Of a stretch of DNA of 64,000 nucleotides, positions 10,473 through 50,700 are shown in pieces. Position numbers and translations under genes: made by a program. Each line of letters opens with the position of its first letter. The first letter of the stretch is position 1. This stretch comes from Novakomyces olei (Eukaryota): the NCBI GenBank assembly GCA_016906335.1, contig JADEYG010000001.1:434001-498000 (forward strand), read 5' to 3'. The notes under the pieces were generated by a model. It was given only the letters and a program-made list of their open reading frames with translations. It searched no databases and had not been told where the DNA came from.

Positions 10473-10592
<120 letters not shown>

Positions 10593-10803
10593 GTTCATAG
10601 GATCGTCAAATGCTTTTATTTACCTTAACTATATTTACCCTATCGTCACACTGCACACACAGTCAACTTGACTCTACAAATTCTATGCATTTTGATTTTA
10701 TTATTATGTTGCCTCCAATTTATTGCTAATTATTATGATTATGATTATAATTATGACTAAACACCAAATGATTTTATTTATACAAATTTTAGTTGTCCTG
10801 TCC

Positions 10804-17279: not shown

Positions 17280-17987
17280 TTACCAAAGATCGCGTAAGAC
17301 AGGATCGTTGATGGAAACAACGAAAACTCCATTTTCCTCCAGCTGCTTTAAAGCGGCAGCTTCTGCCTCGGTAGAAGCGCCTTTAATTGCTTCACTCACA
17401 ACGTAGGTGGGTCGTTTTAACAGCCGTGAGGCATCGAGAGCAGTATTAAATACACAAATCTCAGTGACTAGGCCGCATATAACAACACGCTCAATTTGTA
17501 GTAAATCGTCCAAGATATTAGTCTCTTCTTCCTTGAAGCAGTTCAGAAAAGGCGAGTAAGCTTCGACAGTCGCGTCAGTGCCTTTACGTACTGTGCGTGT
17601 AAGCTTTGCACTCTGCAAGTCCGGGAAAAGATCTGCGCCCGGTGTACCTTGAACACAATGATCGGGCCAAAGTGTTTGCTCTGCGCTTTTATTTGATTTA
17701 CTCTTTATTATGATCCGATCAAAAATGTTATGGCCCGGGTGTGATGAGGCAAACGAGACATGATGCACAGGATGCCAGTCTTGAGTGGCAATTTTAACCG
17801 CAAAATTCCCGTCCAGTAGCCGATTACACGGGGCAATTATGGCCGTTGCGCCAGCTACACCGAAATCGCTGCTCTGAAAGAGGGTTAGGGTTTATATTAT
17901 GACAGGTATTTGACAGGGACGGTGGATTGTTACCTCCAACACAAAGTCATTTTGCACATCCACCACGATGAGTGCGGACCGTCCCAT
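17280..17987 (-). CDS. PNC1: Nicotinamidase (isochorismatase family), 2 exons
   Basis: ALIVVDVQNDF; ATQDWHP; LWPDHCVQGTPGA; EAYSPF; GLVTEICV; intron about 17874-17933. Confidence 0.9.
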
Positions 17988-18507
17988 TTCGTACAGCGCA
18001 GGTCACATGTAAAAGGCGGACTATCACTTTCCGCACTGCGACGAGACGGTGTCTATCGTCTGCGAGTTGCTGAGGATAAATAGGATATGGCGATAGCGTA
18101 TAAAGTTACTGTGAAAGCAGTTGTCTATATGTAACTAGCATCTGTATATTTAGAGACAGTGGTAGGTTAGGATTAGGGTTAGCTTCTTTATCTTTACTGT
18201 AAGTCTAAAAGGGAAAATAGGAGTTTAAACAAAACTCTGACCGTCGAGCTTTTGGTTCGAGCATCTTGCAGTATTTGATTGTATCCAACTGCGAGCGTCG
18301 TCGCTTCAGGCACTAATGTTTTGCATAAAATGTACATTAAAATCAAGGCCATGTATAACCTAAGCGGACAGCAATTACACTGATCTGCCAGCACATGTAC
18401 GTAATGTATATATACTGGATTAGTTGAACAAATACATAGAAAATATATCATAGAACATATATCATAGATAATCAGTCAATCACAAAATACAGAGAAAGCA
18501 ATTTTTT

Positions 18508-20196
18508 ATGCTACGGGCTTTGAGTCGGCAGACAAGGTTTGGAGCACGACCACGGCACGCAGACTGTACTGTATTTTCAATTCACCCAAGAACGATGGCC
18601 ACTAACGGCGGAAATGCAAATGACCAATTGCTGGAAGAAATACGTATAAAAGGCGATGAGATTAAGGCTAAAAAAGCCGCCAATGCAGCAAAACAAGACG
18701 TCGATGTCCTTGTAGCGCAGCTCTTGACTCTCAAAGAAAAAGCAGGCATTGAAAAGAAAAAAGTGCAGCAGTTTACACTCAAAACACCCAAGGGCACAAA
18801 GGACTGGGCGGACAAGGATATCGTGCTGAGGGAACGGATTTTCCGTACAATTGAAAAAGTGTTCAAAAGACACGGCGCTCAGACTCTGGATACCCCGGTC
18901 TTTGAACTGCGAGAGATTCTTTCTGGAAAGTACGGAGAGGACAGTAAACTGATTTACGATCTGCAAGACCAAGGGGGGGAGCTTTGCTCTCTGCGGTACG
19001 ATTTGACTGTGCCTTTTGCCCGCTGGCTGGCTATGAATTCTAACGTGCAACAAATCAAACGGTATCATATCGCCAAGGTGTACCGACGCGATCAGCCGGC
19101 TATGCAAAAAGGCAGAATGCGAGAGTTTTACCAGTGTGATTTTGATATTGCTGGGCAATTTGATCGCATGATGCCCGACGCTGAATGTCTTCGTATTGCA
19201 GTTGAGGTGTTTAAGCAACTCGATTTCCCGAATTTTTCTATCAAACTGAATAACCGTAAAATTCTTGATGGCCTTTTCCAGGTCTGCGGGGTTCCAGAGG
19301 CTAAAACGCGAACAATCTCAAGTGCTATTGATAAACTGGATAAATTACCTTGGGCTGAAGTGCGCTTGGAAATGACGCAAGAAAAAGGGCTGGACGGACA
19401 AGTTGCCGATCGTATCGGAGAGTATGTAAAACTACGGGGCGGCCGTAATTTGATTGAGCAGCTTTTACAGTCAGAGCAACTAAAAAGCAATGCTAGAGCC
19501 CTTGAGGGGCTGCTTGACATGCGACTGCTTTACGATTACTTGGATGCGTTCCAGGTTACGGATTATGTAGTGTTTGATCTTTCGTTGGCCCGCGGCCTGG
19601 ATTATTATACTGGAGTCATTTACGAAGTTATTACAGAAGGATCAGCGCCCAGACACCCGGGGAAAAAGAACGCAGATGGTGAGAAGGACGAAGACAGTAT
19701 CGGTGTAGGATCGATAGCTGCTGGTGGAAGGTATGATGAATTAGTGGGCATGTTTTCACAGTCGAAAAAGGGACCAAACCATTTACCCTGCGTCGGAATT
19801 TCATTTGGAGTCGAACGAATTTTCTCGATTTTAAGAGCTCGGGTCGACGAATCCAAGTTACGACCTTCTGATGTCGATGTTTACGTAATGGCGTTTGGGG
19901 GCGGTAAAGATTTTGATGGGTTTCCGCGGGAACGAATGGCTGTTTGCCGTGAACTGTGGGATGCAGGAATAAGTGCAGAATATCTGTACAAGGCGAAGCC
20001 TAAACCTAAACAGCAATTTGATGCTGCTGATCGCTCAGCCGTACCTGCCGCTGTCATCCTGGGCCAAGATGAATTAGCACAAGGACAAGTTAGAGTGAAA
20101 AGGCTCGGATTGAAAGAGGCTGCCGATGAAGGGAAAGTAGTAGCGCGCAACGAGATGGTTACAGAGATCCGAAGGCTTCTTGCGGATGTGAAGTAG
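18508..20196 (+). CDS. HTS1: Histidyl-tRNA synthetase, probably with mitochondrial (ATG 18508) and cytosolic (ATG 18595) starts
   Basis: [44 protein letters not shown]; Arg-rich 29-aa N-extension. Confidence 0.97.
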
Positions 20197-23466: not shown

Positions 23467-23832
23467 TGTTGTGATTGTAGAGTGACGTCGCCGTGGTAGG
23501 TTTGAGTTGCGAAAGAAGCACGTACGTTATTCTCTACACACACGTATATATATTATTTAATGTATTTAATGTAATATTTACGTATTTATTTATATTTAAT
23601 ATTTAAATTAAATATTCATATATACATATATATATTACTTGGTGTATATTGAAATACTCCCGATAGACAGAAAGCCAGACAGCGCGCAACAGTTAGCGTA
23701 TAAGTCAATAATTTAATATACATAATAAATATAATACTGCAATAAAATACAGAAAAAATGTACCAAAGTCGCCTTTGCCGAAAATCCGACTGCTTTTCTG
23801 TTGGCCTCTATGACGATCGGCACAATCGCCGG

Positions 23833-24967
23833 ATGGAGGCACATAAATGCCACTATGAAAACTGTAATAAATCGTACAAAAAACGGTGCAGGCTAGACGA
23901 ACATTTAAAGTCGCATACAGATCAGCGTGATTTTTGCTGTGAGCTTTGCAGTGCCAAGTTTTTGCGTGAAACGCACTTGAAGGCTCATAAACGCTTCAAG
24001 CACGATGAAACTGGCGCCCACTATACCTGCGAATACTGCGACCTCCATTTCAAAACAAAGCAGCATTTACGCCGACATGAAGAGAGGCACAAGGAACTAA
24101 AGGTATGTGGCTATGATCTATGTACAATTTACCTGTACACTACTGATTGTGCCTTTGCCTTTTGCACTATATGTTTGTTTCATGCATAGAATAAATGCCG
24201 TTTATTTCCGTTGGCTCACTGCTAATCGTATCCAGTGCCCCATATGCCACACAAACGTTTTACGGTCTGAGCTTTATGCTCATACATCTTTACAGCACCC
24301 ACCCCGCTTGAATCGATGCGAAGACTGTGATGCGATATTCCCGACACCCTCAAAATTGCTGCGTCATATCCACTCAGCGCATAGACCGAAAACCCATCGC
24401 TTTGAATGCTGTTATCCCGAGTGTGCGAATGTATCATTTTCAAGTGCAAACGAGTTACACGAGCACGTGCGCAAAATCCATCCTCTAAAATGTCCCGTTT
24501 GTGACCAAGTTTTTTCGAGGTCTCAGTACCTTTGCGAGCATATGCAGATCCATAACACTACGCTTGAGCAACGAAAACAATTTGTCTGCGATTGCGGTAA
24601 GGCGTTCACCAAAGCCTCTGCTCTCAATGTCCATAGAAGGACTTTTCATTTGGGAATGCGTGAGTTTTGCTGCTCTCTGTGCGAGTCCAAGTTTAGTTCA
24701 AACGCGTCGTTGAAGAGGCATGTCTACAATCTACACTTGAAACCGCAGGAAAAAGAGATCCGGCCGGCTGACGCTGAGCACGTGGCTGAAGACGAGGCTT
24801 CAAAGGTGATTGAGATGCTGAGTGGAGCCAGCTATAAACGCGGAAGAAACGTTAAATGCCCAGTTGAAGAGTGCCTTTATTATTTCACTCGCCAACACGA
24901 TCTTGAGCGGCATCTAGCCGCCTTGCATGGTGAACGACTAGTCTGCGGTGCTAAGACAGAAAAATAA
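23833..24967 (+). CDS. PZF1: Multi-C2H2 zinc-finger protein, likely transcription factor IIIA (alternative in-frame ATG 23758)
   Basis: Finger 1 C..ENCNKSYKKRCRLDEHLKSHT; FLRETHLKAH; FKTKQHLRRH; about 10 fingers, the last after IEMLSGASY; intron 24103-24234. Confidence 0.75.
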
Positions 24968-26327: not shown

Positions 26328-29300
26328 CTATGACGTCTCAGCTTCAACACCATTCTCCGCTTCCGCCACACCAGTCTCAGTCTCTTGCGGCTCAGCCGTG
26401 CCTTGTTCAGTCACAGGATGAGCATTGTCTTTTTCATTCTCTTCAATGAGCAAATCGTTCGCCAGAGACTCTGGCACGTCCGTCAAGTTCCATTCTGTGA
26501 AAAGCTCAGGCTCCTCGTCAGGCGCTACCAACAAATCCGCCACTCTCTTACGATTATTCGCTACTAAATCTGCCTTCCACGACTTGAGGATCCGCGAAAA
26601 AGATTTAGGAGCAAAAGTGAGACTAAACAGCCCCGCTTCAGCAAACCGGTTGGTCTGCTCCAAAACCTTTAAACAACCGTCCACATCGTGCAGCAGCCAA
26701 GCGCTTATGAAGGCATTATTATAGACTCCCTGAGCGAGCGCTTCCTGCCGGCAAAGCTCGAGTCCCTCAACGTCGTTTGTGCTGGAGGCAAAAAGTAACA
26801 TGGATCCGAGGTCCTTGGCATTGTAGAAACATTCTCGAGCAAGTTCCAGGTTCCAGGCAGACATGGCAGCATCGCCCACCGTCTTCCATTTAGCTTCAAT
26901 CTCGGATTCACGTGCTAATTCAACAGCTAATTCAAGGTTGCCCAGAGCAAGAGCAAGTTCAAACCGATGCTCTGCGTCCGTTGTGACCTGCAACGCCAGT
27001 TCCGTGTAGCCCTGAGCCTGGAGAAATCGTGAAACAATGCCACGCTCTTCCTCGGGAATTTTTTGCAAAAGCTCTTGTGCTAAATCCATATCGCCACGAA
27101 GCACTACTGTCTGATACTCGATCAAAGCCAGACTGAGCCGGTAGGAAACGAATTTGTGGGCCTTATTGACCAAGTAAACTCTGCCGTCTCGCGGCAAATA
27201 GCCGACTACAAAGAGCGGCTGGTCGAAATTGGCCACTGTCTTTACCTGGCCACCTACTATATAATTCAAACGGTTGGATTGCGTAGTATACACAAAGCAA
27301 TCACCGATCCAAGTGCCGGAAATTACCGTGTCCTCCACGTCAGAAATGGCCTCGAACGCGTCCTCATAGCCCTCTTCGTCTGGACATTAGTTTGTTGATA
27401 ATTAAAAGTAATACATAAAATAAATATAAATACAAATATAAATCTATTTCCGAAATACTTCTGCTTCACTTACTTTCAACATCTTCATCAACTGCATCCG
27501 GATTGTACTTTAGAATATAGAACGAATCCGTGCAAACAACGGCACAGAGTGTCGATTCGGACCAGTAAACATTACGAGCGCCTGCAACTTCAATAATCCG
27601 CACTAGCCGTCCGGTGTCCCAAGTGTAGAAAGCCACAAACTCTCGGCCTTTTAGTCCAATCAGCTTTCCGCCCCACAATTGCTCGCTTTCAAAAGGCAAA
27701 TCGATGACCAACCCGCCTCCTGATCCTGAGCCTGCGTCCTTAAAGTTGCGGAGGACGCGTACACTAGTAGTCGTGTCACGAATAGCATACTCGGTGGAAG
27801 AATTGGCAGACCAACCAAAATCAAGAGCGGGTCCAAAAGCCATATTTCTCCAGGCCAAAGCAGTATAGATAATATACTCGCCATCTCCACACACAACGAC
27901 AAAACGGCCATTGGGCGAATGCTTCAAAAAATGAGGATAAATTTCAGAGGAAGCAACATCTTTGACGGGCAGTGTAAGTTGAGCTCCGTCCTGTAAATCT
28001 TCACCGCTATTACCAGCTGGTGCCTTTATTATAGCAGCCTGAATATCCATATGACGGGCCCATACAAGTTTGCCACTAGCGTCCATACTAACAGCAGGTT
28101 CTTCACTGCCGATTTTAAACACTGTAGAACCCTCGTCGAAACCAATTGCAATATTGTTGCTTCCCCGGAGATAGGCTACAGCCCAAGCACGTTCTAGACC
28201 ATAATTTATAGTCTCCTCAAGGCGGTAGGTGGTAGAGTGCCAAATCTTTACGAGTCCATCCTCTGCGCCACTAATAATTAGAGGCAGTTCTGGGTGGAAA
28301 ACGGAGAAGGAAACATTGTTCGAATGGCCCTCGAGCACCTGCACACAGGCTTTCGTTTGATAGTCCCATATTTTAATGAGCTTATCGTCACCAGTAGTCA
28401 CGAGGTAAGGCTTATCGTTGCCATGGTAATAGTCCACGTAATTCACGCCCTTTTCATGAGCATCGAGTGTGAAATTAGCTTGCGCGGAACCTAAATTCCA
28501 GACTTTAACCGTACGATCTAAACAGGCTGAAGCAAAAGTGTTGGGGTCTTTAGGGTTAATCGCCAGCGACATTACAAAGTGAGCATGACCCTCGTACGTT
28601 TGCACTAGCTTCCAGTTTTGCTCCCAATTCCAACACCGGACTGTCATATCATCCGAGCTCGTCAGGACAAACGGCTGCGTTGGGTGAACTGCCAGTGCCC
28701 GCACATAATCGGGGTGAGCTTCAAACGAAGTTACCCTTTCCCCAGTATTGTAATTGTACACGCGCAACTGGAAATCATCGGCTCCACAGACGAACCAGTT
28801 CCTGCGTGCAATAAACTTGCACGCACGGATAGGAACGTCCGTGAGCTCGAACGTCTTCACAAGCAGCTAAACCGTTAGTCTTGATTATTTTATTCCAAAG
28901 TATCTTCTTTGCATGGTGGAGGCTGCTTTAGACAGGGGACTTGAATTTGGTCTCTCAATTCTTATTTTGACGTATGCATTTTGGTTTTATTTTATCTTGA
29001 AAACATCTCGATTCTGATGCCAAATTTGATCTTTTTACCAACGGCTTTTTCTTATTTTATTCATTTATTTATTTTTTTGGTTATTGTTTGGCGTTGATGC
29101 GTTTGTTTGTTAACCGTGTCCCTTCTCTCTTCGTCCAATTCAATTCAAATTTTCACTTCATACCTGAGTCTCGTGGTTCCAAATGAACACTTGTCCATTA
29201 TAAAGACTGGAAATAATCCACGGTTCCGTTGGATGAAAATCGATGGCCTTTACGCGATCAGACCGCGCTAGCAATTTTCTCTACAATTGAGCAACGAATT

Positions 29301-30039: not shown

Positions 30040-31734
30040 CTAAACAACCCGAACGTGTACGGATTTCAGCTTGTAAAATTGCTCAAATCCGTGACGCGAT
30101 AAAGTAACACCTCGACCCGAATTCTTCCAGCCCGTCCAGGCCAGTGATGGATCTGGGTAATCGGCCCGATTTGCAAACACAGTCCCGGCTTCAACGCCGT
30201 CAATAAAAGCCTGTGCTTCAGAAGAAAGAGGATTTCGTGTCCAAATAGACGCAGTAAGGCCAAACTCTGAATCGTTTACAAGCTCGAGAGCCTCTGCATC
30301 ACTAGAGACTTTCTGTACTCCTGAAACAGGACCAAAAGTCTCCTCTCGCATTACCTCCATATCATGGCTTACTTTTGTAAGAAGTTGGGGGTACACGTAT
30401 CCCTCGGGAATAGCTTTACTCTCGTCACTAAAGCCGACAACTTTAAAGTCCGTTGACGATAAGAGGGCCTTTGCACCTTTTGCAATTGCCTCCTCCACTT
30501 GGCCACGGATCTTTTTAGCCGCAGCTAAACTAATGACCGGTCCAATCGTCGTTTCTGCATGCAGTGGTGGACCCAAGACGGCCTGCTGTTTTACCTGCGA
30601 CACTAACTTTTCTATAAATTGATCAAAAACCTTTTCGTGAACGTAGACACGCTCAATCGCACAACAAGACTGACCGGAATTAAAGATAATTCCATCTGCT
30701 ATTTGTTCTGCTGCGTAGTCTAAATCGGCATCTGCCATAACATACGCTGGATCTTTACCGCCCAGTTCGAGGCCGACGTTGATAAACTGCTTTGTAGTCT
30801 GAGCAGATTGAGCCACTGCTAATTGAATAGCGTTGCCACCTGGAACAGATCCAGTGAAGGCCACGTGTTTGATGCCTTTGTCTGAACACAAATGGCATAC
30901 AGTGGCAACATTACCGATATGTGCAGTCTGTAACACTCCAGCTGGAAGACCTGCCTGTTCCAACAGCCTTTGCAAAGCGTCCGCACTAAGTGGAGTTTGC
31001 GGTGAAGGTTTAAGAATGACCGAGTTGCCTGCCAGCAAGGCAGGGACAAGCGCGTTGATTGTAACGAGGTAAGGGTAGTTCCACGCTATGATAATGTTAG
31101 CATGATGAAGCGGTCTGGAAGAAAAGAACGAAATCATAAATAAAAATAAAATTAGGATTAAAATCATAATACAAATATAAATATAAATAAAGTACTGAGC
31201 AATTGCGATGATAAACATCTATAGCTAATGCAGCACATGATACAAAGGCCCAGGTGAACACCGACAATCACGGTATGAAGTATTATAGACAAGACTGTCT
31301 AATAAACCATAAATCTCCGTGTTAAGCATACCTCCAATTATCACAACTGGCCCTAACGGAACTTTGCGAACGGACCTTTGCAAGTTGCTTGGCCCTGTTT
31401 TGTAAGGATCAGCTTCCACGTTCTCGGGTGCAAGCACGTCTGTCGCGATATTTGCCAAGTAACGGCCACGTAAGGCAGCTGTGCGAACCTCAACAGGACA
31501 AAACCGTGCCGGCCGACCCATTTGTACACTGACATCACGACCCAACTGCTCTGCTTCGTTTTCCAAAGCCTGTAAGAATGTATTTATAACACCAATCCGT
31601 TCTTTAAGCGATTTTTCAGCCCAAAGACGGCCCTTTGCAGTGGAAGTATGCACTAAACCATCAATATCCTGCACCCGAATTTCGTCGCGCCGGGCGACTA
31701 CGCTTTGATCGACGGGAGAAAGCGTTTCAATCAT
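30040..31734 (-). CDS. Aldehyde dehydrogenase of the subfamily associated with bacterial glutamylation operons, 2 exons
   Basis: WNYPYL; KPSPQTP; FTGSV.GG; LELGGKDPAYV; FNSGQSCCAIER; EETFGP; NRADYPDPSLAWTGWKNSGRG; intron 31086-31331. Confidence 0.9.
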
Positions 31735-32083
31735 GAGCGTAAAAGATTGCCTCGTTCAAACAACGTTAATCGCTCTTTGCACAAGTTTACGATATATTAA
31801 CTGTGACACTATTTGTATGTACGCAATACATAATATAATGTATGGCGCGTGCGATTAATGCTCGGAGCTTTTCGATAACAATCTTGATCACGTGCAAACA
31901 CTAATATTGCTTGGATGTCAGGACAGTCTCCTTGGAGAAATACGATTGCCGCAGGAATATGCGATAGTCGATAAGTCGACACGAGCAGTGTCAAAACTCT
32001 AATACTCTATTATAATCTCAAAAGATTATAATTAATTATATTATTATCCTTTGATAGGGAAAACAGCCGCTCATCAGTTCGCA

Positions 32084-33278
32084 ATGGGACGTCTTCAGGA
32101 CAAAGTGGCCGTCATCACCGGCGCTGCAGGGTAAGCTGCGCCACAGTAATGACATCTGTTTTGTTTATTTGGGTTTTGTTTTGTGGCTTATTTGGGTTTT
32201 GTTTTTCTGTTTCATTTTGTTTTATTTTGTATTAATTTAATTTAATTTTGTTTTAATTTTGTTTTATTTCTGTATAATGTCTATGCCGAGTCGGGTTGTT
32301 TAGTGTTCGCGTCTGCCCACTTACTGTGCCGTATTTTCCGTGTGCCTTATCCCATCAGACCAAAGTTAACAAGCATGTAAAGCGGCATCGGCCTGGAAAC
32401 AGCAATCTTGTTTGCTCAGGAAGGAGCGCGTCTTGTACTGTCTGATGTAAACGCAACCGGATTGCAAAGCGCTTCGGCCCGAGTACTCGAGCTGTGCCCG
32501 AAAGCTTCTGTTTACTCCAAACTGTGTGACGTCAGTAAAGAATCCGAGGTTGCAGATCTGATTGCCTTTGCGGACGGAAAGTTTCCTTCCGGCGTGGATG
32601 TTATGTTCAATAATGCCGGAATTATGCATTCAGCGGATGACGACGCTCTTTCAACCGACGAAAAAGTTTGGGATCTAACCCAAGCGATTAATGTAAAGGG
32701 AGTCTGGTTTGGCTGCAAGTACGCTATAAAGAGCATGCTTGCTCACAAAAAGCAAAAGGCTTCTATCATTAATACTGCGTCTTTTGTCGCACTTTTGGGT
32801 GCTGCTACACCTCAGATTGCTTACACTGCCTCTAAGGGCGCAGTACTGGCTCTGACCCGCGAATTGGCCTGCGTTCATGCCCGTGACGGGATCAGGATTA
32901 ATGCCCTGTGCCCAGGGCCGCTCAATACTCCTCTGCTACAGAATTTTCTTGATACGGAGGAGAAACGGTACCGCAGACTGGTTCATGCCCCAACTGGCCG
33001 GTTCGGAGAGGCTATCGAGCAGGCTCATGCAGTCGTTTTTCTCGCCTCTGACGAGAGCAGTTTTGTCATCGGTCAAGATTTTATCGTTGATGGAGGTATG
33101 CTGAACCATATGAAGGGACTGCCTTGTGTCTTTTATTTAATATCATGTCAGCGATAGATATTTTTTAATTTATCTATTCTTTTTTTTCCGCATGCAGACA
33201 TACTAATTTACAGGCCTGAGCAGCGCGTACGTCACGCCCGAGGGGAAACCTTTGCCGGCTCCTCAAAACCAGGCGTGA
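32084..33278 (+). CDS. Short-chain dehydrogenase resembling the SDRs of actinobacterial glnA4-type clusters, 3 exons
   Basis: GRLQDKVAVITGAAG|GIG; MFNNAGI; NTASFVALLGAATPQIAYTASKGAVL; RRLVHAPTGRF; DGGLSSAYVTP; introns 32131-32382 and 33096-33213. Confidence 0.9.
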
Positions 33279-33522
33279 GAGACCGTACGAGTACCAAATG
33301 CACTACTAGAATATATAGATTGGTGTCAGTAATTTAGCTGTATAGATAGATTTGTTAAATGAGTGTCGTATGTGCACGTAGCCGTTTACAGCCTCTTGAA
33401 ATACAAGAAACTTTATAAATAAAAGAGCTGAAACGGCTCATTCGATGATTTATTTATTTATTTATATATTTATTTATTTATTAATTGATTAATTAATTAA
33501 TTAATTAATTAGTAATTATTGA

Positions 33523-35339
33523 TCAATCACGCCGGAACCACTTTGCATACGCCAGCAGGTAGTATAGCCGAAAACTCTTGAAAGCAAACTCGTCTTTACG
33601 CAAATCTTGAGGGTAATCTGCTCCCAAATCAACGGCAGCTGCCAATCCCGAAATTATGGCGGTCTCATGTGCATTGACTACGGTCCATGAACCGGCAAAA
33701 CGAGTATTACTTTTCCCCTGCAAAGTCCAGACCCACGGTACGACAAAGATGTAGTGAGAAATAGAGTGGCAGAGCTGGTGCCACCAGTCCTTGCGAATAA
33801 TTTTGTCAGGATCAATTTCATCGATGGACCACAAATGCGAATCGCGGTCTTTATTCAAAAAAATTGTTTGGAAGACATGACGATCAAATTCAATGTCTTT
33901 AGGAAACTGCGACTGGTAATTTGTTGTATCAAAGCACATTTCCAATTTGCTGCGATCTTCATCGTATTCTTTAATATAATACATTGGTTTAAAATTGTGC
34001 TGTGCAATTTCGCACCTGTGACTTTGATCGACTCCGTTTAGTGAAGTGACGGCTTGTGCTTCATTGTAATCATTTTCATAGTGTCGCCTCATATAGTTCG
34101 TATCGTTGTGCGTGACCGTAATATCGTCACTAAACTTTGCGTGCTTCAAAATGTTTTTCTCTTTCCAGCTAGCGTTCGGCTCGAGGATTTTGCAGGCTGC
34201 ATCGGCCAGCACACACAGAACAATTTCGTCGTACTCTTCTTGTACGTTGTTTGCTTCATAGTAATCGTCATTCACATTGCTATTGTTGCTGCTATTGCTC
34301 TGTGCAACCGACGACTGTTCCTTCCGTTGGCCTCTAGTCGACAAGGAAACCCTAACCCCCTTTCCATCACGTAAGACAGACGTGACCATAGTGTTTAATC
34401 TGACTTGAGCGCCCTGCGCTTCCAAATCACGTCGCCAAGCCGCGTAAAAAGCCCGTAGCTCCGGGAAGACAATCATTGGAGGGTAATTGCTGACAATACT
34501 CGCCTTGTCCCCCGGGTACCACATCCCGACTGTTGGCGAAGTTACCAGCCGTTCCAGAATAATCGCTGGCACTTGTGGAGTCGCGTTGCCTGTACCCAAA
34601 AACAGGGCCACCATGGGCAAGGCCACATCGTTTATAAACTCTGAGGAGAACATGAAAAGCTTGAGCAGTAATTGCAAGGGGTAAAGCAGCCAGAGCACTT
34701 CGGTCCAAGAGATGAATCTCAGCATTCTATGGAACCTTTTGGCTTCGGCTGCGTGACGAACGAGTAGTTTTGTAGGGTAAACGTTGGTCCAGAAGTGCTC
34801 GTCTTTTCCGAAACTGACCTGTAAATCTACAGGGCTCGCATCGAAGCCCTGCTTTTTGAACATTGCCATCGTATGGTGGAAGATATAACTCCCGCCTTGG
34901 ACCCCCTGGTTCAGCCAACCGGCCCCGTAACGCGACTCATCTATCGGTATGGAAAACGCCTGACCACCACAGTAATCGTTGCTTTCGACGAGCGTGACCT
35001 TGGGGTATTTTGTTAGCTAAAGATGCGAATAAAAAGATTATCATTTTTCCCCAATTCATTTCGATCAGCTCTGCACAATTTTTCAGCACAATTTTTTCAA
35101 TTCAAATTGATTTCCTTTTGGATTTATTTCAGCCGATCTTTATTTTTATTTAATTATTTAATATCATATCGCTCGAGATGGGCCGACTTGCCTGGAACTT
35201 TTCCGGGTGCTGTGAAAGATGGTACGCACAAGACATTCCCTAAAATATTAATCAAAGTGCAGTTTTTAAAACAATATTTTAAACTTACTGCGGCACCTGC
35301 GCCGACAACGAGGACGCGTTTAGGCCGTGGAGCTGCCAT
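33523..35339 (-). CDS. FAD-dependent oxidoreductase (amine-oxidase-like), 3 exons
   Basis: RVLVVGAGAA|GMSCAYHL..|VTLVE...CGG dinucleotide-binding fold; C-terminal FAGSW..HE.AIISGLAAA.DLG; introns 35240-35288 and 34999-35191 (GC-AG). Confidence 0.85.
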
Positions 35340-35608
35340 AATTGTCGAGTGTCTTTGGTTTGGTCGCCAATAAAGGTAATTCGGCGATCTACGAATTGAT
35401 GTGTATGACATAACGATATCATTCATATAGTAAGTAACGATAACAGAAAGGTCATACTTGTAACCCTAACACTAATTCAGAGATTATAAACTAACCCTAC
35501 CTAACCCTAACTCCAATTCACCAATATTAGAAAGCAACCCGTGTTTGTGGAGCATGCACAGACTTTTGTAGAAAGCTTAGTGTGCCGAACCGTCAATGAG
35601 CTTTGTCA

Positions 35609-36217
35609 ATGAGCTTTGTGGAGAGACGATACTTGCGACTGTCGCGTAATGTCGCGATTGAGCTACGATTGTTTGTAGAGAATGGCGACAGTGAGTGGCT
35701 GAGTTACATTTTGCCGGTAAGATTCGCGTTGTTTGCAGTGACTAATTGCCATGAAGTCTCTCGTGGAACAGGTACGGCCGACAATAATGACAAAACTGCA
35801 TCAGGAGCGAGACCTTTCACGACAGAGACTTTTCAGTCGAAAAGAGACAATGATGGGTGACGGGTATAGTGCGGATATATATCTTGTGCCCACAACAACT
35901 CGGCACTCGTTGCTTGTAAAGGTTGGATTCTTTATTCATTTATGTTTGTGCCCTTTCATTTAAAAAAACAGTAGCCATTTCTTTTGTGCGTTCAGCAGGT
36001 TCGTGATCTATGATACTGACTTGTAAAGAACGCTGAACTCGAAGAGCCTGTGGATGGAGACGTATTCGATACGAAGCCAGTCCTGCGCGTGAATTACAAG
36101 GGACTACGTAATCATGATCATTCGATATGTCTCGTGATTCACAAAGATCAAGGATCATCTACGATAAAGACGGAGCAGCCTCCAATTAGCGCCTGGATCG
36201 AAAGTACTCAGCAATAG
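35609..36217 (+). CDS. Small hypothetical protein, probably 3 exons
   Basis: RYLRLSRNVAIELRLF, intron 35717-35756, RHSLLVK, second intron from 35922 (acceptor uncertain), then KPVLRVNYKG..ICLVI..AWIESTQQ*. Confidence 0.6.
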
Positions 36218-36388
36218 CAAAACTGGCACAAATAGCCGCCGTTTGGGGTCTTTATTGGCCAGGAATACCATATTATGGCATTATATCGACGGTTACGAGA
36301 ACAACAGATCGTGTAATTGGCACATAAAAAAAAAGTCAACAAATGATCAAAGGTTAAGCAGTTAATTCTGCTACAAAGATGATAGTGG

Positions 36389-37172
36389 CTACAAATACCG
36401 CGTTTCATCAAACTCCTCAATATCAAGCTTTAGCGACCGAGACTCCTTATAGCTTGGTGTTGGTGCTGTAGGATTCTGTTGCAGGTAGAACCGTCGAAGC
36501 AGCACAATTGCTTCCTTGCGGAAAAACCCTGGGTATGCCGGGTATCCCTGGTCAATGCTATTATGGTCACTATTGATTTTGAAAACGCTACCGCAACCGC
36601 CAAATCGATCGTTTCCACAGCCGAAAAAGACAGATCGTATATGAAGTTGTCTTAATGCGGCTGCACACATGAGGCAAGGTTCAACAGAGACATAAAGATC
36701 AGTTTCCTTGAACACCTCTGGGCTGTACGTCTTTAATATTTCTTCGATTGCTACAATTTCTGCGTGGCGAATTCCCTGTTATTAGCTACATTCGGCTATA
36801 GGCAAGAAAATTTGCGCTAAACAAAAAGGAAAGAATTAAAGAATTAAATAAACATGTCGCACAATTGAACTAAACTAAATTAAATTGAACTAAATTAAAT
36901 TAAATTAAATTAAATTAGATTAAATTAATAAAGAACTAAACTCGAGAATTGCATAGTTATGGCCTTACACACAACGAGCGATTAGTATCGTTTTTCCCAG
37001 TTCCAATTACTGTGCCATTATTTACAAAGACGCAGCCAACAGGCACTTCGTTCGCGTCTAATGCGTCTTCCGCCTAGCGAGTTAATTCAAGTAATACGAT
37101 GCCAGCATTACCAAAGCAACCGCTTTTCCCATATGGTGCCAGTGATCTTGATTTTCTCGTACAGCCAAGAGT
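36389..37172 (-). CDS. TAD2: tRNA adenosine-34 deaminase catalytic subunit (3 exons; appears to be the C-terminal half of a fusion gene)
   Basis: EVPVGCVFV; RHAE; VEPCLMCAAAL; GCGNDRFGGCGSV; LLRRFY..NP.AP; introns 37074-37111 and 36776-36968. Confidence 0.93.
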
Positions 37173-37204
37173 CTTTTGATCAGATTTCGTATAGTACTGC
37201 GCAC

Positions 37205-37866
37205 TTACGATTCTGACTGTCCACCCCCCGTGTTCTCCTTGTCCTTATTGCCAGAGACCTTTCCGAGTATGTGTGCTACCACCAATCCTGCAGCCGCGTC
37301 CACCTGCTCACTGTCTTCGTTGGGGAGAACGAGGTCGGCCGATTTTCTTGTAGTCTCGGCAATCTCATCGCCGGGCTTACTTTGCTCCAAATATTTGGTA
37401 ATACTTGATCGGACGAGAGAAAAGTCTGTCCCATCGCCACAGTCACGCAGCAGTATCCGTGCTAGCCTTATATCCGCATCTGCAGCAATAAACAAGGCAA
37501 AATCGTAATGCTTTAGCAGATTAGGAGCCAAAGCCAGATTGCCCACTATTAAAACAACACGGGGCTCACTGCACCCAGCAAGGGCCTCGAGCGACCGTTC
37601 GAGCAGCGTAAAGTCTTTATAATTAGAGGCAAAAGACCAAAATAAATGTGAGTAAAATGAGCTGGCAGTACGGTACCCGTAGACTCCAAGTCTTTGCCTG
37701 GACTGACGAATTCGCAGAGCTCGAGTGTCGCTATTGCACCGGGACCAAGTGTCTCGATTTCTCTCACTATTTTGTTGGCGACGCGCGTCTATTAAAGTTA
37801 ACATGGAAATTTTTAAACGACTACTTTTCCCGCCGCAGTGGCGCCGCCAATGCCGACAATCAGCAT
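37205..37866 (-). CDS. Uridine-kinase-like P-loop protein (Das2-like), 3 exons
   Basis: MLIVGIGGATAAGK|T Walker A; DFTLL; ALFIAADADIRLARILLRD; ADLVLPN; introns 37789-37824 and 37615-37676. Confidence 0.8.
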
Positions 37867-38097
37867 CTCAGCTCATGCCAGGTTTTTGTGTAGGCGGCAA
37901 GTATTGCGAATATTATCATTTTAATGGATTTAGCATGACTCTAGTTGAATATTTTAATTTTAATATTATTCAATTTTAATTTATCCAATTTTAATGATAT
38001 AATAGCATAATAATGAATATCAATAAAATAGCATTATAATCTGGGGTCTGAGCATAAATAAGCTTTAACCTGATGCTTGTGGATTACGACGGGTGCA

Positions 38098-39744
38098 ATG
38101 GAAGAATTGGTGCAACAGGTACGCAGCAATTGAAGTCGTTAGGGCAGATTTACTCACAATTTTAGTTGGAAGCAGATGAGCGGGTAAAAGTTGCGGGCAT
38201 AGATGTTGATGGAATACTCCGTGGAAAGATTATGCTCAAGGACAAGTTCCTCTCTGCGTGTAAAGGCGATGGGTTCGGATTTTGCTCCGTCGTGTTTGGT
38301 AAGAAGCTGCTCGTGTACAATTCCAATCGTGGATCAATCAACTGAGCCTGAACCGTAGATTTTTGGCGGTCGTTTATTAGTCACAATTATGTTTACACGA
38401 CTTGCCTGGTTTGGCTTGACTTGCTCTGATTGACCTGTTTTGTCTGAAGATTTATTTTGCAAGTATTTTACAGTCCACAATTCGCAATGCGCTTTTCAAG
38501 GCACTGACCCTACAGGCTGGGACATGCATGATTCGATGTATGGACGCGAATTACTCGTATCGAACGCAGAGAACGGGTACCGTGATGTAATTGCGCGGAT
38601 CGACACGAAGAGTATACGGCGCATACCATGGGAGGGCAATATTCCTCTCTTTCTCGTGTCATTTAACGATGCTTTAACTGGCGATCCGATAGCCGCTGAT
38701 CCACGCAATTTATTGGCTCGAGCCTGTACGGATCTGGGCGATGTTAAAGCAATGGCCGGAGTCGAACTTGAATTCTTCAATTTTGAGGAGACTCCTCGCT
38801 CACTCGAGCAGAAACGGGGCATCGGCCTTGTGCCTATGACTCCGGGAAATTTCGGGTACTCCCTACATCGGCCCGCGTCCCAGCAAGATTTCTTTTACGA
38901 AATATTTGATCAGTGTCTTGCGTTTGGAATCCCTATTGAGGGCTTCCATACAGAGACAGGTCCGGGAGTTTATGAGGCAGCTCTACAGTTTTCCGAGGCC
39001 TCTTTAATCGCAGACAGAACAAGTCTTTTCAAAATGTCGGTTAAACAGCTGGCTTTGAAACGGAACTTGATCTCCTCATTTATGGCTAAACCTCATAATG
39101 GCTTGGCCGGGTGTTCTGGGCATATACACATTTCCCTGATGCAAAACGGACGCAATTTATTTGCTCGCGACTCGCTTGATTCAAGTGCCAACGTATGGGA
39201 AGACGTCCGTGGCCTCAGTGACTTGGGGCGTCAATTTTTAGCGGGTCTCTTGGACGCTCTAATGGACATTATGCCCATGTTTGCTCCGACTGTTAATTCA
39301 TACAAGAGACTAGTAGAGAATTTTTGGGCGCCCGTGACTGTTTCGTGGGGCCTGGAAAACAGAGTTGCGTCTATCCGACTCATAACGCCGCCTACTTGCA
39401 AACCGGAAGCGACTCGTATTGAAGTTCGAACGCCCGGTGCGGATGTAAATGTTCACTATGCTCTGGCTGCTATAATTGCTGCCGGCCAAAGAGGCATTCA
39501 AAAGAGAATGGAACTGACTCTGCCTCCGCTGGACAAGTCTGGTAAAGATTTGGCCCGGGCCCAGAGGCTACCTCGGACTTTGCAAGAGGCAACTTCTCGA
39601 ATGGCCAGTCCAAAATCTGTAGCCAGAGAGCTTTTCGGTGACGATTTTGTTGATCATTACTGTGGTACACGTGAACACGAAGTTCGGTTATGGAACGACT
39701 ATGTCACTGACTGGGAGGTTAAACGATACATTGAGACTGTTTGA
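38098..39744 (+). CDS. Glutamine synthetase-like gamma-glutamyl-amine ligase (GSI-like, 460 aa), 3 exons
   Basis: AGIDVDGILRGK; GVELEFF; HTETGPGVYE; FMAKP...GCSGHIHISL; NSYKRLVENFWAP; ENRVASIR; RIEVRTPGAD; introns 38119-38165 and 38299-38515. Confidence 0.92.
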
Positions 39745-40686: not shown

Positions 40687-43138
40687 CTACCGATCGACCT
40701 GCCTAGTATGAACATCGTCTTGGATCTTGGACACTGGAGCACAAGATGGCTCTGGCGCAGTTTGCACAATAGACATCCGCCTGTCAACAAAAGGCAGCCA
40801 TAATCCAACTGGTCCAGCGTATTTGGTATGCAAGCTTGTATCGTCCCTTGCATCCGGAGCATAATCAACATCCTTACCCGCATCGATGTACCGCTGAGTA
40901 ATGACGCTGGTAATAAACTCTACAATATGCCACTGCGGCCAAACCCCCTCCCAACTCCGGATTTCTGGCTGCTTGTAATCATAAGCAAAAGCACCGGTAT
41001 CTGATTTAGCTTCCTCTTCAGTAACGCAGGAGCCCTGCTTGCCCTTGGCAGAGTAGTCAAACTTGTGAGCGTGTGGGGTATAGCCGGCAATTGTAGAACT
41101 GACGGCAGAAGATCGAGCATTGGTCCCGTTCATTAGAGCAGTAAAGAGCGAAGCGTCATCCTCACCGCCGTAGAAATCGAGGCCGGTGGACGAGGATCTG
41201 ATACCGCGAAAGTCCAGAGTGGAATCAGCACGACTGACGTTGTAGACGTTGGCAGTATTGCTCGATGGCGATTTAGGGATAAGCATTTGCTGAGACGAAG
41301 AGTTTCTGTTTAACCTTTTCCCCGGAGAATTGGCGGGCATTGAAGAGTCCATCAGTGACGAAGGAGCCAGAGAGTAGACAGAGTCCTGAGCGGCAGTCAT
41401 GAGCGGCCGAGTGGGAGGCGAAGCTGTAGGAGCAGCTGCAAAATTGTTGAGCTGGTCTTCAGAGGCTAAAGAGCCACGGCGGTCAACGACAGCGTAGCGG
41501 TACAGCCGTGCTTGGTGAGAGTAGAGAGCGTTTTGTATGGGCTCTGGGACCATTGCAACAACAGAGTTCTTGGGCACAAGGATCCTGCCCACGAGGCAGT
41601 CGCTGCGGGTCAGTTTAGGGATGAGTAAAGGCCTTGCGGATAAGCTGCCCAGACTGCCAAGCTCTGGATCGCGGCAGCGTAGTAGAGCAAAGTAGAGACA
41701 GGCAGTTGCCAGCTGCCTTGTAACGAGGTACTGGGCAAGAACGTGCTCAGACAGCTCTGTGTTTACGAGATCCTCTGTCAGCACTGGAGCCGGCTGCCTC
41801 AGACTCGAACTCGCGTCGTCGCTAGTCTCGAGCTTTGTAGTGGCCTCGCTCCGCTTGTCCTTTTCCTTGTTTGCGTGTCCGCCAGTATTGCTGCTGACAT
41901 TGTTATTGCTGACATTGTTATTGCTGCAACTGCTCTCGCTATTATTGCCCGCACTCGTTCCCGCATCCGTGTCCGTTTCCCCATCAAAGGTGGCAATACT
42001 CGGAGCAGAGTACATTACATACTGAATGTACTCTGCTCCACCGGCAAAGGCCTCTTTGTCCCGCAAATGTGTGAGCATTAGACTCGCAATTGAAGACTGT
42101 GCCTGCATAAATAGCGCAGTCATTCCTTTGTGCGTAGAGGGAACAGAGCTGCTTTTATTGCTCTTGTTTTTTCGAGAGAGCGGGTGCTGCTCTGGTAAAA
42201 GGGCATAGTACAGAGTAGCCAGCTGCTGGTACAGCTCATCCACCATTCGGCCGAAAAAGACGCTCTGCAGACTCGAGGCAACACACGCGTCTACCAGCTC
42301 GTACAGTTCACCGGCTGCCAGAGTCCACGATTGGTCAACGGCACTGTGGTAAACTCCCACTCTTTGCCGGGAAAAGGCGCTCCGTAAACAAGCGTGAGAG
42401 CTCTGTGTATTACGTAACGACCTGCCAAAGATCTTGCCTCCAGTCTGGGTTTGAGAGGAACCCGATCTCAAACTTTTCCGGCTCGAAAAAAGCGCACTCT
42501 TCTGACTCACGTACCCAATCGCGTCCCAGGCCGACCGGATAGCTCCGTCCGCCGACCCGTAGGCCAGATCAAGGTTTAGGAAGCCGTAGAGTAGTCCCTT
42601 ACGCACGGGATTTAGTACTGTTACAGCCGTATGATTGTACCCGGTAATGATATCCGACCAGAAAATAGTCGTACTGTGCTCACTGCCATCTCCGCCTCCT
42701 CCTCCGCCAGCGCCTCCGCCTTTGTTGCGGATACTCAGCCGCTCAAACGCTCGCTCTATATACTTTCTGGGGTCCTTTTGAAACTGCCGCCGCCGTAAAT
42801 AAGGTGGCGTGAGAAGGACCTGCGTGTGCGACGGGATACAGGGGTAAGGATGGTGCAGCCGAGGCCGTATATAAACCCTGCGTGTGTAAGAAAATGGACA
42901 GACAACAAAAGGCCACTTAAAACAGGGCGGAAATATAAAGGGAAAATGGGATAATTGCTCGTGGCTTCAACGGCTCAATTTTCCCCAGGTTTGGCCAATT
43001 GATTGATCCCTTGTGGAACCCATGATAAAGGCAAAACGTATAGTCTCATTACCAGTAAAAAACCGATAGGCACAATAGGAGTACGGCAACGACAAACCAG
43101 GGTGAGAGGATCACGGCTATAGCGCGCTGCCCTCTCAT
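40687..43138 (-). CDS. 758-aa protein with N-terminal membrane anchor, possibly a degenerate cytochrome P450 fold; 2 exons
   Basis: Exon 43053-43138 (MRGQRAIAVILSPWFVVAVLLLCLSVFY) splices in frame (intron 42878-43052) to a stop-free frame 42877-40687 that extends the listed 639-aa ORF. Confidence 0.7.
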
Positions 43139-47749: not shown

Positions 47750-50700
47750 CTATGAATCATTATTCACTTCTGCGAACCACTGTCTAAGCGCAAGAGCAAG
47801 CATTTCCGGCAAAGTCTTCACATCCTGAACGATTAAATAATAGTCAAAGGCAAATTTGGACATGTAAGATTCAATTCGCAGATTCATTTTGCCATTTGCA
47901 TCCGTTTCGTATTGAACTTGATTCATATCGAGAATTGAACACGTTTTGTTTGCGTACAGAGCATCAATAACGACAAAAATAATCAGAATTCGCTCTTCAC
48001 GAGCTTTACGAAGAAGTTTTCGCACCTTTTCATGGTCCTCGTGGACTCCATCAGAAATTATTACACCAAGTTGCCAAAGACCAGTATCGCTGTTACCATT
48101 TGCTTGACGAGCAGTTTGTAGCAATTCTGTGATTTTCTCAATTAATGCAGAAACATTTGTCTGTTCACGATCAAAGCCTAAATGCTGGCACATTTGAGCT
48201 CCGTCTTGTGTGCTTACGCTCTCGCTAAAATCGTGCAGTAACTTTGCTTGCTGATCAAATTTAACAAAAGCGATTTGGCCTGCTTCGAGAGAGGATAAAC
48301 CTTTGGCTAAAAGAGCCATTGACTGAAGGGTTAAATCGGCACTTTTGGACTCCATCATCGATTTAGAATTGTCAACAGCAATCAGCACTTGGTACTGCCT
48401 TTTGCTCGGCTTTGATCGTCTCATCCAGATCTTGTCCCGTTTGAAATTGCTCGCTATATAGGGGATAATTCGTTTTAAATTAATTCTTTTGCCTGTCTTG
48501 TAATCCCCTCTCATTTTTGCCGCTACTGTTGGCTCCAATATGAGTCGAAGCTGCTCTGCTAATTTGAAAGATAAGTCTCTGGTTGCTGATTCCGCAAGGG
48601 TCCAGCGTTGCGTTGCCTCCTGGAGACTTGAAACTTCATGGTCAGAATCATCCAAAGTAGCACTATCATCTGTATCATCCATCTCCAATCCATTTTCTTC
48701 AGTTTCCCCTGCACGCTGACCAATCCGATTTAGAGCCTCGGTGCCCGAGTCAGTCGTGTCGGCCATATTTTCTTCATTTTCTTTATTTCTTTCGGCAGAC
48801 TTTTCAATATTTTTAGAGCTTCCATTTAGTAAATCTTGCTCCCTCTCAGCTTTCTCATCAAGCTTAGAATTATCTTCGTCATCTTCATTTTTGTTATCCT
48901 CGTCTTCACGGCTTTCATGGTCTTGTTTGTCGAGAGCAGATTTGTCCCCAAATTCCGAGTGCTGTACTCGATGATTAGAATTGGTCTCATTTGCGTTCTC
49001 ATCATTATCATTCTTATTTTGTCCAGAATCATCCGGCTCGTCTCCGCTCATCGGTGTTTCGATTACCGCGCTTCGATCAAGCTTTTCCAGTGACTCCGCA
49101 AGCTGCTTTAATTCCTTTTGAAACTCTGACTGTTGCCGATCATTGCTATCTTCAAAGGCCGAATTTAAAGGATCATTGCCTTCTTTTTGTTCGGACGATT
49201 CACCGGATAGAGCTTGGCTCCTTCCTTGTTTGGTTCCAGACTCTTGCTTTTTATCTTCATCTTCACCGTCCTCACTTTCATTGCCATCTTCTGTCTCTTT
49301 AGCATTTTGATCTTGCTCCTCATTCAATTGCTCGTCTGAACCGTTTTCACCTGCTCTCGGCCTCTGAGGGAAATCGTCATCAGCTGAATCCTGCATATTT
49401 TCGTCATTCTGCTGCTTATCATCAGACTGTTCATCTTTATTTTCATGTTGCTCATTATCACCTTCCGCATCACTTTCAACAACGCCTTCATCGTCTATAG
49501 ATTCTCCCATCAATGCTTCTTCTTCTTCTTTGCCTTCATCCAACTCTTCATTCGCTTCTTCGTCTTTGAAATCAATCTCTTTATCCAACTCGGCTTCTTC
49601 AGGATTTATTGCCTCGTCGCCGTCTTCCCCTTCTTGGTCTTCGTCCTCATCCTCGTCCAGCCTTTCGACTTGACTCGCATCTTTATTCTCAGCTTGTTTA
49701 TTTCCTTCTCTTTCTTCTTCGTCTAGTTCTTCTTCGTCAATGCCTTCTTTTTCTCCATTTTCATCGTCTAAATCCTGAGACTGATCATCTTCGTCTCGAT
49801 CATTCTCACCTTGATCCTGCTTTTCATCCTTTGTGGACTGATCCTTATCAAAATCCATTTTATCGATCAAATCTTGGGAATCGTCGCCATTCTCTTGCTC
49901 TGCCTTCTCGTCAGTTTGATCATGAGCACTTTGCTCATTGTCCCACATTGATTCATTTAGCTTCGTTTCCTCATCATCATCAACTTTCCCCATTTCATCA
50001 TCGTGGGACTCGTCCATCTCTTCCAAATCACTTTCTTGATCGGAACCAGAATCGTTTTTTGTATCAGATTTAGTTGAGGCGTTGTCTCCAAAATAGTCGT
50101 CTTTGTCTTTCTCAATGGCCTCATCGCCGCCATTTTCGTCATCGTTTTCTTGGTCTTCTCCTTCTTCTTGCATCATATCGTCTTCGTTGAACTCATCCTT
50201 GTCCACCTGATCCGAAATGTCTTTTGCGTTTTTGTTATCAGCAGCACCAAGACCAAGCCCATTGCCTTCCGCCTCAGTTTCATTAGAATCTGATTGTGGC
50301 TCACAAAAGCCTTTTCTTAACACGACTATAGCCAAACACGATAAATTGTTGAAGCTCGCCAGTAAACCATGTAAGAGGCGATCAAGAAAACGTCGAGTGT
50401 CTTGCAAGAAGGTCAAGTAGGCCTGCAAAATAGGCGAAATCGAGACTATTTGAGCTTTCCACAAGACGTCTCCGCCAGCACGCAAAGAAGAGCTATTCTG
50501 GCCCACTTCAAAGAGGTCAGTGAGTGCATCTGCTGCACTGTTCAGCTTTCGCAGATCAATACTGTTAACGGTCACAAAAGGCTCTCGAAACGAATCTTTG
50601 CGAGCCCCTGTATTTTTTTGATTACTTTCAAATACTTGCAAAACAGAATCTGCAAACTTGCAAACAAGTCTATCAAACTTGCGATTATCAAAAGCGTGCA

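Follow-up and report, generated by a model that had tools for sequence, protein, structure and literature searches.

We analyzed a 64,000-nucleotide stretch of DNA from the fungus Novakomyces olei (hereafter the window; G000:C1:434001-498000, in a genome of 14.3 Mb and 15 contigs), in which genes encoding a ligase related to glutamine synthetase type I (GSI-like), a classical short-chain dehydrogenase/reductase (SDR) and an aldehyde dehydrogenase (ALDH) lie within 10 kb of one another. Together the three enzymes probably break down a small amino alcohol, most likely ethanolamine, by way of gamma-glutamylated intermediates. A preliminary description of the window, made from its sequence alone, had joined them with a nearby flavoprotein gene in a four-gene cluster. 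The features of the locus are as follows:

30040..31734 (-): ALDH, 482 aa, one intron (exons 31734-31332, 31085-30040); spliced model
31735..32083 (no strand): intergenic ALDH/SDR region, 349 bp, start codon to start codon
32084..33278 (+): classical SDR, 274 aa, two introns (exons 32084-32130, 32383-33095, 33214-33278); spliced model
33523..35339 (-): flavoprotein, amine-oxidase fold, 525 aa, two introns (exons 35339-35289, 35239-35192, 34998-33523); spliced model
35609..36217, approximate (+): small spliced open reading frame (ORF), exon structure partly resolved; no Pfam match for two exons
36389..37118 (-): TAD2-like zinc deaminase, intervening housekeeping gene
37205..37867 (-): uridine-kinase-like gene, intervening; weak udk matches, below cut-off
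38098..39744 (+): GSI-like ligase, 460 aa, two introns (exons 38098-38118, 38166-38298, 38516-39744); spliced model

Organization of the locus

The ALDH and SDR genes are divergent and head-to-head, and the 349 bp between them agree with the roughly 350 bp given in the preliminary description, which had also placed a GSI-like gene about 5 kb further on; the ligase gene begins 4,819 bp beyond the SDR stop codon. The flavoprotein gene ends 244 bp beyond the same stop codon. The spliced models of the four genes are all open, with a single stop each and canonical branch points; end-to-end alignment with the best relatives was obtained for three of them (the three that were checked), and the second flavoprotein intron is of the GC-AG type. 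The four genes of the proposed cluster are thus intact, but they are not contiguous: because three unrelated genes (the small ORF, the deaminase, which from its sequence type is presumably a TAD2-like tRNA adenosine deaminase, and the uridine-kinase-like gene) separate the flavoprotein gene from the ligase gene, the neighbourhood is a loose one and not a contiguous four-gene cluster. The uridine-kinase-like and ligase genes are themselves head-to-head, 230 bp apart. Assuming uniform placement, a given gene would start no more than 349 bp from the SDR start with a chance of roughly 5e-5, and the ligase would lie within 4.8 kb of the SDR with one of roughly 7e-4, a figure that is not independent because the ligase-SDR link is inherited.

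The 349-bp region presumably acts as a shared promoter of ALDH and SDR. It contains three GATAA sites, where the window average would predict about 0.85, and its comparison with the ligase promoter revealed no convincing common motif, only AT-rich words. As the preliminary description had stated, the window contains neither a hydrolase nor a permease of the kinds present in the bacterial operons.

Affinities of the ligase, SDR and ALDH

The genome presents two PF00120 matches, this ligase and, elsewhere, a canonical GLN1, which are 19% alike. Residues E135, E137, E198, E205, H254, H256, E354, R316, R334, R339 and R356 of the ligase correspond to the catalytic set of E. coli GlnA, and the metal, glutamate and ATP residues are retained; the Glu-flap residue E327 of E. 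coli GlnA is replaced by W322, and N264 by A249. The loss of acidic ammonium-handling residues has been described as a mark of gamma-glutamyl ligases (PMC6529630, PMC6478659), and the residue pattern of the ligase matches that described for GlnA4 and PauA7 (PMC6529630). Its large exon (408 aa) scores 205.8 bits against a TIGR00653 GlnA cut-off of 429.15 (200.1 for the full-length ortholog P0002), it falls below all NCBIfam glutamine synthetase (GS) cut-offs, and the Puu-type model NF045547 yields 160.9 against a cut-off of 650. Among solved structures, those nearest in sequence are 5DM3 (E 2e-47) and 11ZS (4e-47), the best true GS standing at 2e-37. 5DM3 corresponds to Csal_0679 from Chromohalobacter salexigens, the bacterium whose ethanolamine pathway has been described, and we take it to be the ligase of that pathway. 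True GS and gamma-glutamyl ligases could not be told apart by a fold search. On its residues and profile scores, the protein is strongly predicted to be a gamma-glutamyl-amine ligase rather than an ammonium-handling GS.

The best 120 of 7,951 ligase relatives share 54-74% identity with it, and all those with names are fungal. M. oryzae GLN3 would appear to belong to this family. Its deletion has been described as causing no growth defect, and GLN3 as not covering the loss of GLN2 (PMC8229676). A survey of 201 bacterial genomes from one phylum (E <= 1e-45) returned 34 ligase matches in 30 genomes, falling into two tiers of 39-42% (group A) and 31-36% identity (mostly group B). In a quick 71-row tree, the sister relationship of the fungal ligases and group A was weakly supported (83). 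In a 44-row mixture-model tree, which omits 27 of the 71 rows (long branches and near-duplicates), ten fungal rows define a clade (100/100) that is sister to nine proteobacterial group A rows (100/99), and the ligase of the window branches outside Saccharomycotina plus Pezizomycotina. Group B, the IpuC-type ligases and the PuuA clade form separate branches of unsettled order, with GlnA also apart. The ligase thus lies outside group B, a separate 100/100 clade located by stand-ins for characterised proteins, whose members include ligases from operons arranged as in Chromohalobacter/Phaeobacter and one (L106), from a Streptomyces operon, that repeats the published GlnA4 residues at a constant offset.

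The neighbourhoods of 13 group A loci were tabulated, leaving out five distant loci (other ligase clades) returned by a scan of genome contigs with the single ligase as query. ALDHs of the same subfamily as that of the window were found at ten of these loci, an iron-containing alcohol dehydrogenase (Fe-ADH) at six, and an ethanolamine-permease-family gene at three, two of them above the TIGR00908 cut-off; one locus combines TRAP, ALDH and Fe-ADH genes in the layout of the Phaeobacter ethanolamine operon. In both ligase groups, some operons (L126, L127, L157 and L035) adjoin an FGGY kinase and/or glycerol-phosphate-dehydrogenase-like flavoproteins, neighbours that would fit the breakdown of glycerophospho-ethanolamine or an aminodiol substrate.

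The SDR carries a TGxxxGIG motif, an Asp after strand 2 and the residues S149, Y163 and K167; Asp at this position denotes a preference for NAD. No second member of its subfamily was found in the genome (72% to the ortholog, against 24-42% for the other 19 listed matches). Its best NCBIfam model, by a wide margin, is PRK06057 (NF004713), yet the scores of 251.7 bits for the large exon and 283.4 for the full ortholog P0121 lie below the cut-off of 404. To locate genes associated with this subfamily, loci were chosen by SDR similarity alone from the best 80 of 597 metagenome matches in an alignment-driven scan, sorted by hand into 21 fungal-type and 59 bacterial-type loci (with several near-duplicates among the bacterial rows and many short contigs), and ligases were counted within 6 kb. 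A ligase was present at 42 of the 59 bacterial-type loci, including 30 of the 31 with at least 1.5 kb upstream, and at 7 of the 21 fungal-type loci, that is, at seven of the eight with room for it (six head-to-head, one tandem). Bacterial-type loci also presented an ALDH (31 of 59) and an amidotransferase or C26 gene (17 of 59, against none of the 21 fungal-type loci), the usual order being permease, ligase, SDR, ALDH and amidotransferase. Among 19 permeases beside ligases, eight pass TIGR00908, three more have it as their best model, seven are nearest to TIGR00907 and one has no match. In a plasmid collection with seven SDR matches, four loci were inspected, and each has a GS-like gene no more than three genes away, in one case followed by an annotated ethanolamine permease. 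Phylogenetically, the SDR falls in the clade of the ligase-linked subfamily (96-98 SH-aLRT), and in the trees both SDR and ALDH lie near rows from Saitoella, Taphrina and Protomyces. Together with the position of the ligase, this makes the fungus in all probability an early-branching ascomycete.

Many filamentous ascomycetes have the ligase and SDR genes adjacent. Consecutive tags or accessions were found in Verruconis, Stachybotrys, Ustilaginoidea, Metarhizium anisopliae and M. rileyi, tags 8 apart in Moelleriella and 18 apart in one Ophiocordyceps, and equal-sized contigs bearing the two genes in Westerdykella, Aspergillus bertholletiae and Thermoascus. The comparison of synteny across fungi suggested in the preliminary description thus shows ligase and SDR side by side in many cases and the ALDH mostly unlinked. 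Four of 13 scanned fungal-type SDR loci (L029, L030, L031 and L047) lie near citrate-synthase, PrpD or isocitrate-lyase family genes of the methylcitrate-cycle type, which may be plain synteny, and at L012 and L027 the fungal ligase-SDR pair is flanked by DUF3237 and AdoMet methyltransferase genes.

The ALDH retains its active-site residues E241 (LELGGK) and C275 (GQSCC), and has the tail NRADYPDPSLAWTG (residue 440); both this tail and the SDR motif quoted in the preliminary description are present. It is the sole subfamily member found in the genome, at 56% (main exon) and 39% (first exon) to the ortholog, against 24-43% for the other 18 listed matches, and its orthologs in asco- and basidiomycetes reach 52-65%. 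Searching the same 201 genomes by ALDH similarity alone (E <= 1e-62) yielded 27 matches, of which 23 lie within 2 kb and 25 within 7 kb of a ligase match; the remaining two lack a ligase across the 12 kb fetched, and one of them stands beside an ethanolamine-permease-like gene and an amidotransferase. Ligases occur in 30 genomes, ALDHs in 25 and both in 23 (Fisher p 6e-22, which overstates the evidence because the genomes are related). The fungal ALDHs and these bacterial ones form one clade (99 SH-aLRT); outside it fall PuuC, the ALDHs of the actinobacterial operons and of the Ipu pathway, and three paralogs from the same genome as the window. The assertion that SDR and ALDH each belong to bacterial subfamilies associated with such ligases is thus upheld by 42 of 59 SDR loci and 23 of 27 ALDH matches. 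The head-to-head arrangement of ALDH and SDR is the new element here and names the probable third step. A weak hint of a second ALDH-SDR pair comes from an SDR (P0131) and an ALDH (P0242), both of early-branching type, whose contigs each measure 4,531 bases, equal sizes that also occur by chance (P0064 and P0290). A 252-aa protein beside the Rhodotorula ALDH was considered as a partner and rejected, being an unrelated low-complexity protein of membrane type.

A putative ethanolamine route and its alternatives

The three-enzyme chemistry, from gamma-glutamyl-amide to aldehyde to acid, is very probable and well supported because residues, trees and two independent neighbourhood tests agree. The same classes of evidence favour the pathway of ligase, SDR and ALDH put forward in the preliminary description, with ethanolamine as the best candidate substrate. 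In the proposed scheme, the ligase, with ATP, is strongly predicted to join glutamate to ethanolamine, giving gamma-glutamyl-ethanolamide. The NAD-type SDR would then act as a gamma-glutamyl-ethanolamide dehydrogenase, oxidizing the alcohol to an N-protected aminoacetaldehyde, and the ALDH, as a gamma-glutamyl-aminoacetaldehyde dehydrogenase, would form gamma-glutamyl-glycine, from which an unlinked, putative gamma-glutamyl hydrolase might free glycine and recycle glutamate. In the logic of the bacterial route, the glutamyl tag means that no free reactive amino-aldehyde is formed and no vitamin B12 is needed. Both ethanolamine as the substrate and the final hydrolase are presumptive elements of this scheme.

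Several observations weigh against this reading, which for the fungal members is a prediction from sequence, trees and neighbourhoods. The D50 region is not conserved in the ligase, the alignment of D50 and Y179 being uncertain; the ligase is just 31-36% identical to the GlnA4/Csal-type clade of characterised enzymes, and we know of no group A member that has been characterised. None of the 13 group A loci harbours a fungal-type SDR, two carry an aminotransferase and a spermidine/putrescine ABC transporter, and two a fatty-acid desaturase and a C26 gene (one also a GMC oxidoreductase). An ALDH is found at none of the 21 fungal-type SDR loci; in Verruconis and in Thermoascus its contig is not that of the ligase-SDR pair, in two Saitoella species about 90 genes intervene, and in most fungi checked it is unlinked. 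The genome encodes two copper amine oxidases, an alternative route to the use of primary amines, and contains neither a formylglutamate-type amidohydrolase (FGase) nor a true C26 hydrolase. Finally, Yarrowia gln2 (Yali0D13024g) is presumably our relative P0107. It is treated as a nitrogen-assimilation gene, with higher levels on ammonium than on peptone (PMC5311114); one 1,629-character supplementary file of PMC4766638 contains nothing on the Yarrowia neighbours.

The genome search for a C26 or formylglutamate-type hydrolase suggested in the preliminary description thus came back empty; by sequence, the two C26 matches are anthranilate synthase II (TRP3-type) and GMP synthase (GUA1-type). Elsewhere in the genome, unlinked to the ligase, lies a stand-alone class I amidotransferase with Cys and His-x-Glu motifs (G000:C7:972307-973304; L090 916-1913 (-)). 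It shows 29-38% identity to operon amidotransferases over the first 130-200 residues only, and two of its 35 bacterial matches lie within 7 kb of a listed ligase, making it a weak candidate for the missing hydrolase. Plant GGP1, presumably of the same family, has been described as a gamma-glutamyl peptidase. The genome also encodes, outside the window, amino-acid permeases akin to one operon type (best 33%).

The flavoprotein, the single match of its kind in the genome, lies next to the SDR gene as described, but its proposed membership in the pathway is not supported. No match was found in any fetched locus, including the eight fungal-type SDR loci whose downstream sequence extends for 2 kb or more, or in the plasmid collection, and an ortholog has just a 31-residue FAD motif in common with PuuB; we accordingly rejected it both as PuuB and as a conserved pathway member. 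Its 771 representatives at E <= 0.001 include seven with names among ten looked up (six fungi and a red alga), with more distant bacterial clusters in Atlas. The predicted model (pLDDT 92) is closest to the solved structure of LkcE (17% identity, TM 0.70, profile E 3e-38), and no polyketide context is found in the window. On these comparisons, the flavoprotein is probably a neighbour and not a pathway member. Several CTAACCC-like units occur in the 5' region of its gene (~35460-35515), and similar units lie 3' of the amidotransferase gene in locus L090.

Among other explanations, the same three-step chemistry may serve another main substrate (aminopropanol, alaninol or a serinol-like compound) or broad monoamine detoxification. 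The mixed neighbourhoods within group A speak for it, as do the IpuC-type ligases, which are 34-35% identical and also bear a tryptophan at the flap, the 11 of 19 permeases that fail the ethanolamine-permease cut-off, and the fungal combination of a group A ligase with an SDR whose bacterial counterparts accompany group B ligases. However, layouts with ethanolamine permease, TRAP and Fe-ADH are found repeatedly in the two ligase groups as well as in the SDR operons, and the Ipu SDR and ALDH belong to other clades, so that we regard a different substrate as rather unlikely. A role for the flavoprotein as fourth member, oxidizing the N-acyl carbon of the gamma-glutamyl amide and so releasing glutamine and the aldehyde without a hydrolase, would agree with its position beside the SDR, with the lack of an operon-type hydrolase in the genome and with its closest structure, the amide oxidase LkcE (PMC6162330). 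The low identity to LkcE, the missing linkage in loci and plasmids, and the presence of three plainly unrelated genes in the same interval make this idea improbable.

It is highly improbable that the ligase is a second true GS with the dehydrogenases as chance neighbours. Its orthologs are named glutamine synthetase in databases, Yarrowia gln2 is higher on ammonium, and three unrelated genes stand between ligase and SDR here; against this, the Glu-flap is lost, all GS cut-offs are missed, GLN1 is available elsewhere in the genome, ligase and SDR adjoin across fungi and bacteria, and M. oryzae GLN3, if indeed orthologous, does not prevent glutamine auxotrophy. A polyamine pathway of the Puu type, with ligase, flavoprotein and ALDH as PuuA, PuuB and PuuC, has the same general chemistry in its favour, together with the polyamine ABC transporters near two of the 13 group A loci. 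Yet PuuA (29%) and PuuC (34%) fall in other clades, against the polyamine analogy drawn in the preliminary description; the flavoprotein ortholog resembles PuuB in its FAD motif only, an alcohol dehydrogenase has no place in the Puu route, and the genome has no PuuD-type hydrolase. We consider this reading, too, to be highly improbable.

With regard to origin, orthologs of all three enzymes across ascomycetes, and of the ALDH also in basidiomycetes, indicate that the predicted ethanolamine route is old and widespread in fungi, in line with the old origin proposed from the sequence. It would work like bacterial ethanolamine gamma-glutamylation without duplicating any operon sampled. Bacteria combine the lineages of its parts in other ways, so the transfer of one operon as a whole is not demonstrated. 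We tentatively envisage, at somewhat below even chances, a B12-free ethanolamine-to-glycine pathway predating the ascomycete radiation and built as a mosaic of bacterial parts (a group A ligase, a PRK06057-like SDR and an operon-type ALDH), in which fungal GLN2/GLN3, now annotated as second glutamine synthetases, would be the first enzyme; the ancestral trio would have been kept here, and later reduced in moulds to a ligase-SDR pair with a free ALDH. If correct, the proposed route would provide a testable function for three conserved fungal families, at present catalogued under 'glutamine synthetase', 'glucose 1-dehydrogenase' and 'aldehyde dehydrogenase'. It would also give fungi a means of recycling the phosphatidylethanolamine head group to glycine, and studies or models of nitrogen metabolism in which the second 'GS' assimilates ammonium would need correction. 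The literature searched, which included few subscription journals, yielded bacterial papers and FluG only and no fungal description of the pathway, so absence from print is not established.

The remainder of the window contains a long trinucleotide run (~10480-10600) that reads as poly-Asn/poly-Ile, a second, unrelated SDR (13032-13433 (+)), an isochorismatase/nicotinamidase-like gene (17280-17891 (-)), and genes for histidyl-tRNA synthetase (18472-20196 (+)), a C2H2 zinc-finger protein (23746-24967 (+)) and coatomer beta-prime (26328-28866 (-)). Beyond the ligase lie a Ser/Asn-rich frame of 759 codons without a Pfam match (40687-42966 (-)), a RidA/YjgF-family protein (PF01042; 43961-44368 (-)) at a distance of about 4 kb, an LrgB-like membrane protein (PF04172; 45749-47143 (+)) and an open frame of 4,701 codons (47750-61855 (-)), which from its sequence we take to be of the midasin type and whose acidic tail gives rise to a strong C/T skew at 49001-50100.

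Comparison with known gamma-glutamylation systems

Gamma-glutamyl tagging precedes oxidation in the E. coli Puu pathway (PuuA/B/C/D) as in the scheme proposed here, from which Puu is set apart by its separate clades, by PuuB and PuuD, which have no fungal counterpart, and by the alcohol dehydrogenase present in the fungus. The isopropylamine (ipu) pathway (IpuC as annotated on pTC1 of Paenarthrobacter aurescens) likewise starts with a gamma-glutamyl ligase, with tryptophan at the flap, followed by alcohol and aldehyde oxidation; it differs in its P450 system, absent from the fungus, and in the clades of its SDR and ALDH. In Aspergillus nidulans, FluG has been described as a GSI-like protein and proposed gamma-glutamyl ligase of unknown substrate (PMC6478659). 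By description, FluG is an 865-residue amidohydrolase fusion, unlike the stand-alone ligase of 460 residues studied here.

The GlnA4 cluster of Streptomyces coelicolor comprises SCO1610-SCO1615 (PMC6529630) and shares with the fungal locus its composition of ligase, SDR and ALDH. This comparison was made through actinobacterial stand-ins for the S. coelicolor proteins. The kinship suggested in the preliminary description is retained for the SDR, which is of the same clade as that of the Streptomyces operon with the GlnA4-pattern ligase (L106), but not for the ligase, which is 32% identical, has tryptophan instead of phenylalanine at the flap and belongs to another clade, sister to proteobacterial sequences, nor for the ALDH, which falls outside the stand-in clade in a different subfamily (34%).

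The ethanolamine gamma-glutamylation operon of Chromohalobacter salexigens and Phaeobacter sp. MED193 has been described as encoding a ligase, an Fe-ADH, an ALDH, a formylglutamate-type amidohydrolase and a TRAP transporter (PMC10132767, PMC9397018). The fungal locus resembles it in a ligase of the family lacking the Glu-flap and in the proposed order of reactions, and its ALDH is of the same clade as those of operons with this layout (41-46% identity). Unlike that operon, the fungus has an SDR in place of the Fe-ADH, a ligase sister to group A rather than of group B, no FGase or TRAP transporter, and intron-bearing eukaryotic genes that form no operon. The chemistry is known from bacteria; the fungal locus adds the ALDH to the ligase and SDR.

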